Positions 18,656 through 33,834 of a stretch of 45,557 nucleotides of DNA are shown here, piece by piece (within the stretch, counting starts at the first letter, position 1; each line of letters starts with the position of its first letter). The notes beneath the pieces are model-generated. The model saw only the letters and a list, made by a program, of their open reading frames with translations, did not search any database and was not told where the DNA came from. Position numbers and translations under genes: made by a program. The stretch is from Promethearchaeota archaeon (GTDB lineage Archaea > Asgardarchaeota > Lokiarchaeia > Sigyniarchaeales > SOKP01). The stretch spans positions 1 through 45,557 of the forward strand of contig RDOA01000024.1 in NCBI GenBank assembly GCA_011364925.1. The letters run 5' to 3'.

Positions 18656-20020
18656 ATGAAAAATTTTTTTATTGTTATTGTTGCGATGGTATCCGGAATT
18701 AGTGGGATGTTATTTGGTTATGATACTGGTGTTATCTCGGGGGCTATTTTATTTATCAAGCAAGAGTATCCTCTTTTACTTCTTTTACCATTTTTACAGG
18801 AATTAGTTATTAGTGCTGTTTTAATTGGAGCAATAATCGGAGCAATTATAGGTGGATCGTTAGCTGATCGTTATGGACGAAGAAAAATGATTATTATTGC
18901 CGCAATTATTTTTGCTGGAGGTGCTATTGGAACATCATTAACATTTAATATAATATTCCTGATCATAGGAAGAGTAATTGTAGGAATTGCTATAGGGATG
19001 GCATCGTTTATTGCCCCGCTCTATATTTCTGAAATGTCTCCACCAAGGATTAGAGGATCGTTAGTGTCTTTAAATCAATTATTTATTACTATAGGAATTG
19101 TGATCTCTTACTTGGTAGATTATGCTTTAACTCCTATAAGTGGATGGCGTTATATGCTTGGTTTAGCGGCAATTCCCGCTATTATATTATTAATTGCAAT
19201 GATCTTTATGCCAAGTAGTCCGCGATGGTTAGTTAATAATGGAGAGATGGAAAAAGCACGCTCTACCTTGATTGAGATTCGAAGGACAAATGATATCAAT
19301 AATGAATTGAATGAAATTAGCACTAGTCTTGATAAGCAAAAAGGAGGGAGAAAAAACCTGTTTAATCCTTTAATAAGACCTGCAATGATTGTAGGTATAT
19401 CACTAGCGATTTTCCAACAAGTAACTGGAATTAATACCGTGATATATTATGCTCCAACCATTTTTGAATTTGCGGGATTTCAATCAGCTGCAGCAGCTAT
19501 CTTTGCTACAATCTTCGTTGGAATTGTTAATGTACTCTTTACTCTTGTTGCGATCTTTTTGTTGGATCGCGTCGGTCGGCGTAAATTGTTGTTACTTGGT
19601 TTAACTGGTATGAGTGGGATGCTTATAATGTTAGGGATCGTATTCTTTTTACCTAGTTTATTAAATCAATTAGGAACATTAGCTGCAATTAGTTTAATTT
19701 CTTATGTTGGCTTTTTTGCTATTGGGTTAGGTCCAGTTTTTTGGTTATTAATTTCCGAAATATATCCTCTAAAAGTTAGAGGTCTTGCGATGAGCATTGT
19801 GACTGTGGCTAATTGGGGATCTAATTTAATCATTGCGTTAACCTTTTTAACTCTAATTCAACTTATGGGACGTACAGGGACGTTTTGGCTTTATGCTGTT
19901 GTAGGAATATTAGCGTTAATTTTTACATATACTTATGTTCCAGAAACGAAGGGTAGAACCTTAGAAGAGATTGAAGAACATTGGCGTGGTGGAAAACATC
20001 CACGAGAATTGGGGAGATGA
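18656..20020 (+). CDS. MFS sugar porter
   Basis: FGYDTGVISGA, DRYGRR, YISEMSP, QQVTGINTVIYY, DRVGRR, GLGPVFW, VPETKGRTLEEIE. Confidence 0.95.
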   Translation: MKNFFIVIVAMVSGISGMLFGYDTGVISGAILFIKQEYPLLLLLPFLQELVISAVLIGAIIGAIIGGSLADRYGRRKMIIIAAIIFAGGAIGTSLTFNIIFLIIGRVIVGIAIGMASFIAPLYISEMSPPRIRGSLVSLNQLFITIGIVISYLVDYALTPISGWRYMLGLAAIPAIILLIAMIFMPSSPRWLVNNGEMEKARSTLIEIRRTNDINNELNEISTSLDKQKGGRKNLFNPLIRPAMIVGISLAIFQQVTGINTVIYYAPTIFEFAGFQSAAAAIFATIFVGIVNVLFTLVAIFLLDRVGRRKLLLLGLTGMSGMLIMLGIVFFLPSLLNQLGTLAAISLISYVGFFAIGLGPVFWLLISEIYPLKVRGLAMSIVTVANWGSNLIIALTFLTLIQLMGRTGTFWLYAVVGILALIFTYTYVPETKGRTLEEIEEHWRGGKHPRELGR

Positions 20021-28834: not shown

Positions 28835-29233
28835 TTAAAGCGATAAAATTTCATTAAGGATTTCTAAATTTTGGTCTACTTCTTCCCTAAACAAGTGATA
28901 ATAAGTGAATTTTTGTTTTTTATACCCCTGTATAATGCCAGCTGCGACTAATTTTCTTAAATGATGAGATATGGTAGATTGGGACTTATTTAAAATGGCT
29001 TCTAATTCACAAACGCACCTATCTTGATCCTTTAAAGCTTTTATTATGATTAATCGCTCCTTAGATGAAATCGCAGATGTAAACCTTTCAATCGTATTTA
29101 AATTTGTATTTTCTTCTAAATTATTTCCCAATTTTAATAAATTTTCAAATACAATATCTGAATTTGATAGATTTCTACAAGAGCATAACTTTTTTTTTAT
29201 TTCTAATGTTTTTCTTTGTGTTATAAGAACCAC
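28835..29233 (-). CDS. arsR: ArsR/SmtB family metalloregulator
   Basis: RLIII, DRCVCEL (As-binding CVC), SQSTISHHL; extra N-terminal CSC; divergent from acr3. Start codon uncertain. Confidence 0.9.
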   Translation of the reverse strand: MVLITQRKTLEIKKKLCSCRNLSNSDIVFENLLKLGNNLEENTNLNTIERFTSAISSKERLIIIKALKDQDRCVCELEAILNKSQSTISHHLRKLVAAGIIQGYKKQKFTYYHLFREEVDQNLEILNEILSL

Positions 29234-29390: not shown

Positions 29391-30494
29391 GTGGTAGAAG
29401 AAGATATTGAGTATAAAACTATTCATAATGTAAATAAAGCGGAAGAGGAAAAACAACAATCAAGGAAGATCAATTACTTTGAGAAATTGCTTCCAATTTG
29501 GGTAGTGTTATGTATTGTTTTAGGGATAGTTCTTTCTCAATTTGTCCCAGAAATAAGTGAAACCATAAATTCGTTACAAATAGGGAGTATATCCATTCCA
29601 ATCGGTATTTGTCTATTTCTCATGATGTATCCTGCAATGTTGAATTTACAAGGTTCGGAATTAAAGAAATTAGGTCGAAATCCAAAACCTATAATCTTAA
29701 CGCTTGTATCAAACTGGCTCGTGGCTCCCTTTGTAGGTTTGGCAATGGTCAATATTTTTTTACCCGGCACTACCGAAGATATAGAGCAATTAAAGGTAGC
29801 AATAATCCTTCTCTCAAGTTCTCCGTGTACCGCAATGGTTTTAGTATGGGGTTGGATGGCAAAAGGAAATCAAGAGCAAAATGTTGTTAATACCAGTGTA
29901 AACACTATAACGATTATTTTCCTATATGTTGGCATGGTTTCATTATTGACAGGTATTCAAAATATTTCTATTGATCCTTGGTTGTTACTGATTTCTTTAG
30001 TCTTCTTCATAGGAATCCCACTATTGTTAGGAATTTTAAGTAAAAAACTTATTGTCTCCTCAAAGGGATTGAATTGGTTTAATGATAAGTATAAACCATT
30101 TGTTGGTAAAATTTCAATAATCGCATTATTGACGACCCTCGTAGTTTTATTTTCATTAAATGGAGATGTATTAATACATAATCCAGATTTACTTTTGATA
30201 GTCTCAATTCCTCTCTTAGTTGGTTTTGTAATTGTAGTTGGCTACAATGTTTTTGTTACAAAGATCTTCAAATTGAGGTACAGAGAGGCAGTCATTACAG
30301 TTATTATAGGATCTTCAAGCCATTTTGAAATTGCTATCGCAACTGCTATAGCTATATATGGCATTGGTTCAGTCGCAGCATTGGGAACAACAATGGGACT
30401 CTTCTGGGAAGTACCAGTGATGTTATCAATTGTATATTTAGGAAAATATCTTGGAAAACGGGGTTTTTGGAAATCATACCCTTCTTCAAAATAA
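29391..30494 (+). CDS. acr3: ACR3 family arsenite efflux transporter
   Basis: LFLMMYP, NWLVAP, catalytic SPCTAMVLVW, SSHFEIAIATAIAIYG, LFWEVPVM; about 10 TM helices. Confidence 0.93.
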   Translation: MVEEDIEYKTIHNVNKAEEEKQQSRKINYFEKLLPIWVVLCIVLGIVLSQFVPEISETINSLQIGSISIPIGICLFLMMYPAMLNLQGSELKKLGRNPKPIILTLVSNWLVAPFVGLAMVNIFLPGTTEDIEQLKVAIILLSSSPCTAMVLVWGWMAKGNQEQNVVNTSVNTITIIFLYVGMVSLLTGIQNISIDPWLLLISLVFFIGIPLLLGILSKKLIVSSKGLNWFNDKYKPFVGKISIIALLTTLVVLFSLNGDVLIHNPDLLLIVSIPLLVGFVIVVGYNVFVTKIFKLRYREAVITVIIGSSSHFEIAIATAIAIYGIGSVAALGTTMGLFWEVPVMLSIVYLGKYLGKRGFWKSYPSSK

Positions 30495-30521: not shown

Positions 30522-32189
30522 ATGGCAGTCGTATATATGCGTAAATTAGAGCAAGAACCTGATACCTACGATGAAAAATTTACAGCATTGACAAAAGGGG
30601 TAAATTTAGAGGTAAGACAATGGATTCTTGATCGAATTGGAACATCCAATTCTATCTTAGAACTAGGATGTGGAACAGGAAATTTCGCCACCCAAATGGC
30701 ATTTCAACAAAATAATGTCTTAGCTGTTGATATTAATTTTCAAATGATAAATTATGCTATGCAGAATTATCCTTCTGATTTAAAAGGTGGGACTCTTGTC
30801 TACCAAACTGGTTCCTTTACTAACATGCCAGTTGACGAGAACTCCCAAGATCTAATAGTCAGTACTTTTATGCTTTCTGAACTCCGTCCTTTCGAGCAGC
30901 AAATATTCCTTAGAAACGCTTGGAAGGTCCTAAAACCGAACGGTCGTTTAATTTTGGCAGCTGAATTTGTACCAAATGGATTCTGGAAATTCATATTTAA
31001 GATTAAAAGATGGAGATATAAGAAAAAACTTAGAAGACTCAAATTAAGAAGCACATTTCTCTTGAAATGGTTTTTCAATTATATCGAACCAATAGGATTT
31101 AAGATAAAAGCCAGGAAAGCTTGGAAGCATGGAACTATTCAAGCTCTTGAACTAGTTAAAACAGAAGATCAAGGAAAAAGCGAACCCGGATATTACAGAC
31201 CTGCACCTAAAAAATACAAGGGATTAATCTCACAGTTAAGAATATATCGATGCATCTATACTGGACAAATTGATCTCGTTCCTATAGACCCCGGTCTTTA
31301 TAAATCCGGAACTCCTGACGAGAAATCACCAGTAATAGTTACCGCAAATTATGAGTTTACATTTATAAAAGTAATGAGAAATCTAAAAGGTCTTGACGCT
31401 TGGGTCTTATGTGTTGACTCTAATGGGATAAATGTATGGTGTGCCGCAAGAGGAAACGACTTTGGGAACAATCAATTAATTGAAGCCGTTGAGGCTACGG
31501 GATTAGAGAATATTACTGAAAGAAAGTCCTTGATTCTTCCACAATTATCTGCGGGCGGTGTGGCTACACCAGAATTACAAAAGAAATCCAAAAATTTCCC
31601 ATTTCGAGTAGTATTTGGACCAATATGGTCCAAAGATTTACCAGAATTTATAAACAATAGACCTGCTCGAAAGCCGGACAAGATGAAACTTGCTAAATTC
31701 ACGCTAAAACATAGGTTCCGCGCATTTATTACTCATACAACTTTTCTAATTAGAAAAATATTCGCACTCCCCTTAATTGCGCTGTTTTTAATTTCACTTG
31801 TCCTAAGTTTATTTGGTTTATTCGATAAATTGTGGTGGGCTGGTGAACTCTTACTATGGATTATTCTTTCAAACTTTTTAATAACATTTTTACTCCCCCT
31901 ATCTAAGTTTACGCGGAGATTCATATATAAGGGAATATTCTTTGGTATATTAAACACTCTTGCTTTGGGAGCTTTGACCTATTTTCTGCATAATTCGATT
32001 CTTTACATCCTTTGGAACATCGCCTTCTTATTTTGGGTTTCATTTTTTTCTACTATGTCTTTGAGCGGTTATACAATGGATACAAGTCCAAGAGAAATTC
32101 AAGAAGAATATCCAATTTTTAGAATTATAAATATGGTCTTGTTAGCAATTAGTTTAATTTCGATGGTAGTAGGAATTATTCTACTGTAA
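30522..32189 (+). CDS. Fusion of a class I SAM-dependent methyltransferase and an HgcA-like corrinoid-binding/membrane protein
   Basis: N-terminal ILELGCGTG, AVDIN, DLIVSTFMLSEL. Central PGLYKSGTPDEKSPVIVTANY, GINVWCAARG (nt 31431-31448 for NVWCAA), LILPQLSAGGV, FGPI. About 5 C-terminal TM helices. Confidence 0.88.
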   Translation: MAVVYMRKLEQEPDTYDEKFTALTKGVNLEVRQWILDRIGTSNSILELGCGTGNFATQMAFQQNNVLAVDINFQMINYAMQNYPSDLKGGTLVYQTGSFTNMPVDENSQDLIVSTFMLSELRPFEQQIFLRNAWKVLKPNGRLILAAEFVPNGFWKFIFKIKRWRYKKKLRRLKLRSTFLLKWFFNYIEPIGFKIKARKAWKHGTIQALELVKTEDQGKSEPGYYRPAPKKYKGLISQLRIYRCIYTGQIDLVPIDPGLYKSGTPDEKSPVIVTANYEFTFIKVMRNLKGLDAWVLCVDSNGINVWCAARGNDFGNNQLIEAVEATGLENITERKSLILPQLSAGGVATPELQKKSKNFPFRVVFGPIWSKDLPEFINNRPARKPDKMKLAKFTLKHRFRAFITHTTFLIRKIFALPLIALFLISLVLSLFGLFDKLWWAGELLLWIILSNFLITFLLPLSKFTRRFIYKGIFFGILNTLALGALTYFLHNSILYILWNIAFLFWVSFFSTMSLSGYTMDTSPREIQEEYPIFRIINMVLLAISLISMVVGIILL

Positions 32190-32242: not shown

Positions 32243-32602
32243 ATGACAGAATCGGAATTTAAAAGAAGTTTAGAAAGTTTATCAATTAAAGATTTTAAAA
32301 TCTTTATAAATGAAGAAAAATGCAATGGTTGCGGATTGTGCGGCGAAGTATGCCCCTTTGGGCTTCCACAACCTCTCGATAACGGAAAATACGATATCCC
32401 AAATCCAAAACTTTGTACTGAGTGTAGTGCTTGTAAACGTAACTGTCCCGTGGATGCTATAATTATGAACGAGAATAAGGGATGCGGGTGCCTATGGAAC
32501 GCGAGAGCAAAAGCTAAAAATACAAGATCAGGTAATAAAGATATTAACAGCTGTGCTTGTGGTACTGAAGGGAATGAATCAAATACAAGTTGTTGTGGCT
32601 AA
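32243..32602 (+). CDS. HgcB-like 2[4Fe-4S] ferredoxin with Cys-rich tail
   Basis: CNGCGLCGEVCP and CTECSACKRNCP, then GCGC, CAC and terminal CCG; immediately downstream of the hgcA-like gene; GAGGT RBS. Confidence 0.85.
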   Translation: MTESEFKRSLESLSIKDFKIFINEEKCNGCGLCGEVCPFGLPQPLDNGKYDIPNPKLCTECSACKRNCPVDAIIMNENKGCGCLWNARAKAKNTRSGNKDINSCACGTEGNESNTSCCG

Positions 32603-32661: not shown

Positions 32662-33060
32662 ATGGTTAAAGAAGATATAAATGTTGAAGTAAGAGATGAT
32701 CGTAATCCACCAGCAAGTTCTTGCTGTGAAAATTCAACTGTAGAGAAAAAAGCTGAGATCGGGAGCCTTGAATTATCAGAAGAAAAAACAAAAGACAATA
32801 ATAAGCTTTATGTTGATGTATATGTTCCGTTAAACGCTTGCGAATGTGTTTGGTCTCAATTTATGAACCTTGTGTTTACTGCACTTGCTCCCTATATGAA
32901 ATACATTAAATTTGAAACGAAAAACTTAGATTCTGAAGAAGCACATAAGCTTAACCTAACAGGTAATTGTGTAGTAGTTGATGGTAAAAAGAAATTTATA
33001 ACATCCTTCGCTTTAAAAAAAGAATTACCTAATCTTCTTAAAGAAAAAGGATTATTATAA
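32662..33060 (+). CDS. Cys-rich thioredoxin/ArsD-like putative metallochaperone
   Basis: SSCC in a disordered N-terminus, 'DVYVPLNACEC' after a beta-strand, 'CVVVDGK' hairpin typical of the thioredoxin fold. Confidence 0.55.
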   Translation: MVKEDINVEVRDDRNPPASSCCENSTVEKKAEIGSLELSEEKTKDNNKLYVDVYVPLNACECVWSQFMNLVFTALAPYMKYIKFETKNLDSEEAHKLNLTGNCVVVDGKKKFITSFALKKELPNLLKEKGLL

Positions 33061-33101
33061 TTGCACAAATTATTTTTTCTTAACAGATAGGGTGAGAATA
33101 G

Positions 33102-33443
33102 ATTAAAAAAGTAAAAATAACAATCTTTGGACCTGAAAAGGCACTCGCTAACGGAGTTGAATATAATGTAGAAATAAACGATGATGGAACTATAATCAAC
33201 GCCTTAGCTACTATTGATAAAGAGTTGGTTCAAAACCCTGAGAAATCACTATTTCCTATGTATAAAGGTTTAATTCAGAGTTATCTCCAGCTGATTTGGG
33301 ATCCCCAAAAAAATGTAATTTACGAAGATTGCGCTAGTAACGCTTACGGGCCTAACAAAGAATTTATACCGCTGTTAGATGATGTCAATTTTAATCTCTA
33401 TCCGGATAGCGAGATTACTTTAATTGTACACGCTGATTGATGA
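33102..33443 (+). CDS. Candidate selenoprotein with beta-grasp (MoaD/ubiquitin-like) fold; non-canonical ATT start
   Basis: The frame of the tracked ORF 33225-33440 is open upstream to ATT 33102 (IKKVKITIFGPEKALANGVEYNVEINDDGTIINALATIDKE), with GGTGA at 33091-33095. It ends ...SEITLIVHAD-TGA-TGA, and a SECIS-like hairpin lies at 33569. Confidence 0.6.
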
Positions 33444-33568
33444 GCTGATAACATGCGAGAGCGATTAGATTTTGGAACATTTAAACGAATTATTATGAAA
33501 AGCTACGGAAAAGAACACAAAACTTTTGCTCATTATTTCGTGCAGAAACTGAACCCGAATAAGTGAGA

Positions 33569-33604
33569 ATGACATCTTTCAAAAAATATTAGTGAAAGAT
33601 TGAC
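33569..33604 (+). promoter_or_regulatory. Eukaryote-type (Lokiarchaeal) SECIS-like element
   Basis: ATGAC-ATCTTTCA-AAAAATATTAG-TGAAAGAT-TGAC: AUGA/GA non-Watson-Crick core, perfect 8-bp helix, A-run on the 5' side of the apical loop. Confidence 0.65.
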
Positions 33605-33834
33605 AAAGGGAATGCTTCCCTTATACTTTATTGAAGTTAAAAATATTAAATTTTAGAAAAACAGTTCTTAAATTAGTTAAACAGCTCCTCCTCGTTTTTC
33701 TTCTTTCTTAACTTTGAAGTTGATAAGTTGTTCTTTAGTAGACAAAGTTTAAATATATGTTTATCAGAAATAGTATTAATTTAAATTTGAATAAAAAAAG
33801 AAGTCCTTTAATAAAAAAAAGTGATTAAAAAAAT

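Follow-up and report, generated by a model that had tools for sequence, protein, structure and literature searches.

A tandem UGA pair predicted to encode adjacent selenocysteines

We analysed a 45,557-nucleotide stretch of DNA from Promethearchaeota archaeon (assembly GCA_011364925.1, contig RDOA01000024.1, positions 1-45,557, forward strand), referred to below as the window. At 33102-33566 of its forward strand lies a predicted selenoprotein gene in which two consecutive UGA codons, at 33438 and 33441, are both decoded as selenocysteine (Sec). We place the probability of this reading at roughly 0.85-0.9, a figure that applies to the reality of the Sec-Sec gene and not to the function of its product. 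An initial annotation of the same DNA had proposed a hidden selenoprotein here, and its reading of the frame is confirmed by the sequence. The open reading frame (ORF) list, made with genetic code table 11, holds only a 71-residue ORF with a TTG start (33225-33440) at this place. The frame itself opens at ATT 33102, immediately 3' of TAG 33099-33101, and runs for 112 codons (33102-33437) to TGA 33438 and TGA 33441. The annotation had placed a single Sec at the C-terminus, and this part did not hold. Past the TGA-TGA pair (33438-33443), the same frame continues through a further 40 codons (33444-33563) to a TGA at 33564-33566. Both UGAs are therefore internal, and 33102-33566 reads as a single gene with a 154-residue product: a 112-residue domain with one Cys (C77), the pair Sec113-Sec114, and a conserved helical tail of 40 residues.

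A word-index search returned 142 homologues of this protein, hereafter the UU family, all from metagenome-assembled genomes (MAGs) of Asgard archaea. Most of them are called as proteins of 107-118 residues ending in HAD, cut short in the databases, and those called under a code in which TGA specifies Trp continue into a conserved tail of about 35-40 residues. We fetched 55 loci from species-representative genomes, giving 56 when the window is counted (loci are coded L0xx and genomes G0xx, G1xx or G2xx; the source genome, a MAG of 3.9 Mb, is G000). TGATGA follows the motif H-[AV]-[DE] in 56/56 loci. A per-codon analysis of 55 aligned loci revealed zero variation at its six positions (zero entropy) while neighbouring codons wobble, and the true terminal stops of the homologues vary (TAA 40, TGA 12, TAG 1). 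The genome uses the standard genetic code. Among its 1529 ORFs of at least 300 residues, 1056 end in TAA, 266 in TAG and 207 in TGA, making TGA the rarest stop (14%, against 69% for TAA). The invariance of TGATGA amid wobbling codons, together with this low share of TGA among stops, indicates that chance does not explain the pattern. Neither TAA nor TAG, which the initial annotation had named as contrary evidence at this site, replaces the tandem TGAs in any of the 56 loci or among the matches listed in 127 Asgard genomes, every one of which has two to three in-frame TGAs.

The sequence beyond the pair is conserved as protein in all loci. Entropies at the three codon positions of the tail are 0.47/0.38/0.94, compared with 0.46/0.27/1.19 upstream of the Sec pair, so that tail and upstream domain share one coding signature. 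All four Ala codons are used across loci for the residue directly after the pair, and a single Arg of the tail is written with six different codons.

Translation of the window gene is credibly assigned to the AUU at 33102. A Shine-Dalgarno-like GGTGA (33091-33095, forward strand) was read directly 6 nucleotides 5' of it, and the layout GGTGA-N6-7-ATT recurs in L024, L025, L026, L036, L047, L050 and L069. ATT is the first codon after the upstream stop in seven other loci and lies two codons further in in two more; L053 has an ATG at exactly the ATT position. The assignment is based on this spacing, on the ATT of related loci and on the ATG of L053. Most other homologues start with GTG, and apparent ATA starts are found in L028, L046 and L051. 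The AUU starts of the window's subclade and the three AUA starts each stand behind a well-placed GGTGA. Near-cognate start codons conserved between species are unusual in archaea, and here they may keep expression low.

A conserved lokiSECIS element follows the stop codon

Two nucleotides after the true stop begins the core of a selenocysteine insertion sequence (SECIS) element at 33569-33603 of the forward strand. The initial annotation had described an AUGA hairpin of eukaryote type about 130 nucleotides downstream; its AUGA (33569-33572) lies 131 nucleotides 3' of the first TGA. The AUGA is followed by a 9-bp stem (33573-81 paired with 33593-601), an 11-nucleotide loop that begins with AAAAA and ends with AG, and a GA at 33602-03 that completes a closing UGA (33601-33603). 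Mariotti et al. (PMC4989117) described the lokiSECIS by an AUGA, a 9-bp stem, an 11-nucleotide loop with five leading A and a final (A)G, and a GA; the window element matches every one of these features. A second hairpin, with a 7-bp stem in the minimum-energy fold, lies directly 3' of the core (33606-33622, forward strand), and four of its six pairs are changed on both sides across loci. Both SelD genes of the source genome likewise have an AUGA ... UGA element with a similar extra hairpin directly after the stop.

The element is conserved together with the UGA pair. It is found 1-24 nucleotides past the true stop in 55 loci, that is, in every complete locus aligned (L074 is cut off). In the alignment of these 55 sequences, 89% of cells pair, compared with 40-52% in slid controls. 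Eleven of 17 pairs are changed on both sides, and none of 500 shuffles reached the observed covariation score. In several loci the element and the stop codon share nucleotides: the terminal UGA is the UGA of the AUGA core in L026, L034, L056 and L068, and the stop codon overlaps the first A of the core in L036 and L054.

A covariance model built from the UU family only was searched against the 3.9-Mb genome. It matched the window element at 78 bits and, at 60 bits, the element of a second family member on contig C39. A further match, at 28 bits, lies at 1054-1125 of contig C5 (reverse strand), 3' of a gene of the VhuD/MvhD type, which contains two in-frame UGAs and belongs to the known Loki selenoproteins. 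Thus, a model trained on the new family found the SECIS of an established one. At gathering thresholds Rfam gave no match in the window, and no Rfam model fits the lokiSECIS.

Sec machinery and distribution of the family

The initial annotation had asked for Sec machinery in the genome, and most of it was found. The source genome encodes SepSecS (473 bits, which exceeds the cut-off), a PSTK-like kinase (169 bits), two SelD genes and, sharing a contig with SepSecS, an EFSec-like GTPase (228 bits). The SelD genes stand in tandem on the reverse strand of contig C94 (2995-5290), each with one in-frame TGA, and have type-II-like SECIS elements. A tRNA-Sec, to which we return below, was not detected.

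Members of the UU family are present in 127 of 400 Asgard genomes, including 116 of the 134 (about 87%) in the source's own taxonomic family. SepSecS occurs in 243 of the 400 and in 124 of the 127 family-positive genomes; the three without a SepSecS match are G253 (79% complete), G258 (500 contigs) and G130 (66% complete). Lineages without SepSecS contain no member of the family. By profile search, remoter C-U-U members were also found in sister lineages, among them the closed genomes G135 and G143. Two Asgard-type loci with ars genes and a UU gene (L022 and L036, record DATKTW01...) are deposited as 'Candidatus Nanopelagicaceae bacterium', a MAG that is probably mislabelled or mis-binned.

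Three observations weigh against a Sec-Sec gene. First, homologues with Cys aligned to the UGAs, a usual although not obligatory criterion and one to which the initial annotation had looked for the first UGA, do not exist in the sets searched: there is no Cys form among the 142 close matches, and no Cys-Cys homologue among the 20 representatives matching out of 1.84 billion proteins or among the matches listed in the 127 genomes. The other lines of evidence compensate for this absence. Second, the thermodynamic stability of the SECIS is modest (z = -1.54). Third, tRNA-Sec was not found in the assembly. Only sub-threshold matches to tRNA-Gly and tRNA-Leu appeared, and ARAGORN, run with or without introns, detected no UCA anticodon among the 12-13 tRNAs that it recovered from the whole MAG; with so few tRNAs detectable, this negative carries little weight. 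A search with Rfam at permissive thresholds around the Sec-machinery loci found nothing. Only 12-13 tRNA genes were detected although the MAG is rated 100% complete; either tRNAs are unassembled or those with introns were missed by ARAGORN.

The Sec pair ends a predicted beta-grasp domain

No Pfam or NCBIfam family matches the UU protein at E values up to 1, and none was obtained for its paralogue or for the 132-residue protein encoded next to it. We predicted the structure with AlphaFold2 from the 55-row alignment, with Sec written as Cys, and obtained a model with a pLDDT (predicted local distance difference test) score of 90.9 and a pTM (predicted template modelling) score of 0.87. It has strands at residues 2-9, 19-25, 77-82 and 103-109 and a helix at 31-44, which together form the N-terminal domain. 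Residues 113-114 fall in a less confident loop, and the tail consists of helices at 115-120, 124-135 and 143-146 (pLDDT about 95).

The top Foldseek matches are SAMP1 (4hro, probability 1.00), Urm1 and MoaD-like proteins, and VIA-align gives CysO (Z 7.8), the transcobalamin beta-domain (Z 7.8) and SAMP1 (Z 7.3). Taken singly these scores are limited, as the Foldseek E value of about 4e-3 is weak and Z values of 7-8 are in a common range. The model is assigned a beta-grasp fold, as the initial annotation had proposed from the residue pattern, because the run of beta-grasp matches is consistent and covers the whole domain. Residues 1-112 of the model align with the carriers up to their C-termini. 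By this alignment the predicted Sec pair stands at the Gly-Gly position of MoaD, SAMP and Urm1, where the annotation had expected the UGA to replace the terminal Gly.

Subfamilies keep three chalcogen residues

A scan of the loci and the genome yielded 65 members of the UU family. Among 54 members of the window's type, 51 combine the Sec pair with a single Cys at position -36 relative to it (C77 in the window), and three have one extra Cys. In ten members of a GC-UU type, the only Cys is at -1. L075 is frameshifted upstream, and its upstream Cys could not be scored. A third subfamily, U-G-U-U, has a further in-frame TGA, which would place a Sec at -2, and usually no Cys. This arrangement would put three Sec within four residues; it occurs in L088, L091, L093, L094 and L095 (G151, G152, G154, G155 and G157). 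The U-G-U-U genes often stand in tandem with a GC-UU paralogue, each gene with its own SECIS.

With few exceptions, each member therefore has exactly three Cys or Sec residues, the third being Cys at -36, Cys at -1 or Sec at -2. Three-coordinate As(III)-S3 sites occur in ArsR and ArsD. That the third soft ligand moves between subfamilies and is always kept suggests a trigonal As(III) site, as judged from these residue patterns; a three-residue redox relay fits the same pattern equally well. In the model, C77 opens a strand expected to lie antiparallel to the last strand before the Sec pair, which would plausibly bring it near the pair.

The second family member of the source genome (L078/L083) is of the GC-UU type. 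It lies on the reverse strand of contig C39 (19295-19768), with GC followed by TGA-TGA and a homologous tail, and has its own lokiSECIS at 19225-19290. Around it lie a pair of ABC permease genes, two genes for short-chain dehydrogenases and, in convergent orientation, a gene for a TPMT-like methyltransferase.

The gene closes an arsenic resistance operon

ORFs were clustered over the 56 loci to define the gene context. The commonest order is a divergent ArsR, ACR3, an optional methyltransferase-HgcA-like protein with an HgcB-like protein, a thioredoxin-fold gene and the UU gene. The most conserved neighbours are a protein of the 132-residue type (44/56), ACR3 (43/56) and ArsR (32/56), followed by an HD-domain protein (28/56) and a membrane hydrolase (20/56); arsC is not among the conserved neighbours.

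In the window, the ArsR/SmtB regulator (28835-29233, reverse strand; Pfam HTH_5, NF033788) carries a CVC motif and is divergent from the operon. The first gene of the operon, on the forward strand, encodes an ACR3-type arsenite efflux permease (29391-30494; Pfam SBF), which scores 273.7 bits on TIGR00832, just below the cut-off of 282.8. Downstream is a 555-residue fusion of a CpaM-like S-adenosylmethionine (SAM) methyltransferase to an HgcA-like corrinoid membrane protein (30522-32189, forward strand; NF043040, NF040863; 17/56 loci). It scores 190.9 bits on NF040863, below the cut-off of 275, and its HgcA-like part has the cap-helix motif NVWCAARG. An HgcB-like ferredoxin with two [4Fe-4S] clusters and a long Cys-rich tail follows (32243-32602, forward strand; 13/56 loci). 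The fusion and the ferredoxin are an optional insertion between acr3 and the thioredoxin-fold gene, found in only 13-17 of 56 loci.

The last gene before the UU gene (32662-33060, forward strand) encodes the 132-residue protein, in which a disordered N-terminus rich in Cys precedes a thioredoxin-fold domain that bears a CxC motif. In nearly all of the 44 loci that have it, it is immediately upstream of the UU gene. Its C60 and C62 are invariant, its AlphaFold2 core has a pLDDT above 90, and all of its Foldseek matches are thioredoxins or glutaredoxins. Some relatives encode the Cys-rich part in an upstream ORF of its own. We considered whether this neighbour is itself a selenoprotein and rejected the idea: in three of the four loci split in frame, the stop between the Cys-rich part and the thioredoxin domain is TAA or TAG, which makes the two parts separate ORFs.

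Elsewhere, the genome has four genes of the LMWPc (low-molecular-weight phosphatase)/ArsC type, three of them in tandem on the forward strand of contig C38 (133565-135014), far from the ars operon. No Grx-type ArsC was found in the genome.

Proposed function and alternative explanations

We propose the following scheme. Translation would initiate at AUU 33102 of what would be the last gene of an ArsR-controlled operon and build the beta-grasp (ubiquitin/MoaD-like) domain. The lokiSECIS kink-turn hairpin and the archaeal/eukaryote-type Sec machinery would then direct decoding of UGA 33438 and UGA 33441 as adjacent Sec residues, and translation would run on through the helical tail. In the product, Sec113, Sec114 and Cys77 may form a three-ligand soft site for As(III) or a related metalloid or methyl-metalloid, and the protein may buffer the bound species or hand it off to, or receive it from, the thioredoxin-fold partner and the pump. 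The initial annotation had suggested a selenol carrier for arsenic, mercury or methyl-metal species; among these, the conserved ArsR-ACR3 context favours arsenic. We consider binding and hand-off of As(III) or a metalloid an evenly balanced proposal, drawn from the gene context and the three-chalcogen pattern. Gene context also supplies two points that tell against it: the neighbourhood of the C39 paralogue holds no link to ars genes, and L063, L065, L066 and L069 have no ars genes within 4 kb.

A more specific version of metalloid binding is tentative and less likely than not. Here, the protein would be a selenium counterpart of the ubiquitin-like sulfur carriers: the Sec pair and the third Cys or Sec would hold As(III) or methyl-arsenic covalently, and the load would be shuttled among the thioredoxin-fold partner, the corrinoid methyltransferase and ACR3. 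This requires one SECIS in the 3' untranslated region (3'UTR) to serve two consecutive UGAs, or three of four codons in the UGUU genes. If true, archaea would have their first dedicated selenoprotein metallochaperone, and its site would be the first in a natural protein to be made of vicinal selenocysteines.

We find it rather doubtful, though still to be taken seriously, that the protein is instead a Sec-Sec redox enzyme, with a diselenide or selenenylsulfide relay that involves the third Cys and is re-reduced by the CxC of the neighbouring thioredoxin-fold protein. Such an enzyme might be an analogue of arsenate reductase or a reductant for the corrinoid protein. The ArsC of pI258 type is coupled to thioredoxin and uses a relay of three thiols, Cys10/82/89. 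The three chalcogen residues of the UU family resemble this relay, and the partner with its invariant CxC lies directly upstream in nearly all loci that have it. Further points in favour are that arsC is absent from the conserved neighbours and a Grx-type ArsC from the genome. However, the four LMWPc/ArsC-type genes mean that a reductase may already exist, organisms of anoxic sediment mostly encounter arsenic as As(III), and the beta-grasp fold has no oxyanion-binding P-loop.

It is improbable that the protein works as a selenium or sulfur carrier in the manner of MoaD, ThiS, CysO or Urm1, the role of the C-terminal thiocarboxylate being taken by a per-selenide or As-Se species bound to the Sec pair. 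The sulfur carriers are the nearest matches to its fold, and the Sec pair falls exactly at their Gly-Gly position. Yet there is no free C-terminus, since the 40-residue tail follows the pair; the conserved neighbours include neither an E1-like adenylyltransferase nor a sulfurtransferase; and the sequence does not match the ThiS or MoaD models.

The remaining alternatives deny that the gene encodes a selenoprotein. That TGA-TGA is a reinforced double stop of a 112-residue protein, with the downstream 37-40 codons forming a separate small ORF or conserved non-coding sequence, is very unlikely. An ATG at 33453 in 53 of 55 loci could serve as the start of such an ORF, and the failure to find tRNA-Sec is as this explanation would have it. 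Nevertheless, L053 has Leu and L069 has Phe in place of this Met, four codons past the pair. The ATG is thus not a start codon, which argues against a separate small ORF. At the three codons that separate it from the pair, the amino acids are conserved and synonymous changes occur. A double stop also leaves several findings without explanation: TGA is never exchanged for TAA or TAG, even though TAA is the prevailing stop of the genome; U-G-U-U members contain yet another in-frame TGA, their third; all complete aligned loci have a lokiSECIS behind the tail; and the family is restricted to Sec-using lineages. General reassignment of TGA (code 4 or 25-like) or a pseudogene can be dismissed: some public gene callers do translate homologues with Trp-Trp at the site, but long ORFs are intact under table 11, the 207 TGA stops counted above are in use, and the gene is under purifying selection and retains both TGAs in 127 genomes.

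Comparison with known systems

The UU family would be an addition to the archaeal selenoprotein families. Huang et al. 2024 (PMC11227280) listed seven Asgard selenoprotein families, all found through homology to known ones, and a 2026 review counts 11 archaeal families, with no beta-grasp entry. Mariotti 2016 (PMC4989117), Sun 2021 and the Atabeyarchaeia paper reported only HdrA, VhuD, VhuU, PrxL and SPS. The family is in neither the Asgard nor the archaeal list, in agreement with the initial annotation, which did not count it among described archaeal selenoproteins, and full-text literature searches on Asgard archaea returned nothing relevant to Sec residues in tandem or side by side. Because it has no Cys form, selenoproteome surveys based on homology cannot find it, and database entries break off at residue 112-118.

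Adjacent Sec residues test the efficiency of the eukaryote-like Sec machinery of Asgard archaea and bear on the evolution of multi-Sec decoding, as in SelP. The link to ACR3 and ArsR suggests a use of selenium for metalloid handling rather than redox catalysis, which has not been described in archaea. For annotation, Asgard ORFs that end in TGA-TGA merit a check for a lokiSECIS.

With the known lokiSECIS genes (HdrA-VhuD, VhuU, PrxL and SelD; PMC4989117, PMC11227280), the UU family shares the AUGA/GA kink-turn hairpin in the 3'UTR near the stop, the 9-bp stem, the 11-nucleotide AAAAA...AG loop, the use of one SECIS for several UGAs and the Sec machinery. It differs in that its Sec residues are adjacent (UU, CUU, UGUU), whereas theirs are in UxxC/UxxU redox boxes. 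Its predicted fold is beta-grasp, not thioredoxin-like or Fe-S, no Cys homologues were found in the sets searched, and it stands among ars genes in an operon.

The nearest precedent in kind, by analogy, is the set of metal-linked bacterial selenoproteins described by Haft and Gwadz (bioRxiv 10.1101/2022.07.06.499078), which comprises SaoL (MerB-like), SaoC, HgcA and HgcB with CU/CC motifs and which databases truncate at the CU sites. In both cases Sec stands beside another chalcogen residue, among genes for heavy metals or organometals that include the HgcAB type. In contrast to the UU family, that set is bacterial, has its SECIS inside the coding sequence, uses CU instead of UU, has unrelated folds and mostly has Cys homologues.

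The sulfur carriers MoaD, ThiS, CysO, SAMP1 and Urm1 are alike in the beta-grasp fold and in having their reactive residues at the C-terminal Gly-Gly position. The UU protein has Sec-Sec and then the helical tail in place of Gly-Gly, and no E1-like partner is among its conserved neighbours. It is not a member of the sulfur-carrier family, because it lacks a free Gly-Gly end and a match to the sequence models.

In function, the analogy that we infer is to ArsD and ArsR, with their S3 coordination. The UU protein is likewise small and soluble, is encoded in an ars operon by the pump and would offer three soft ligands. ArsD has a thioredoxin fold, binds through Cys12/13/18 and works with the ArsA ATPase; at the UU locus, the thioredoxin fold is in the neighbouring gene and there is no ArsA, and the ligands of the UU protein would be two selenols and one thiol.

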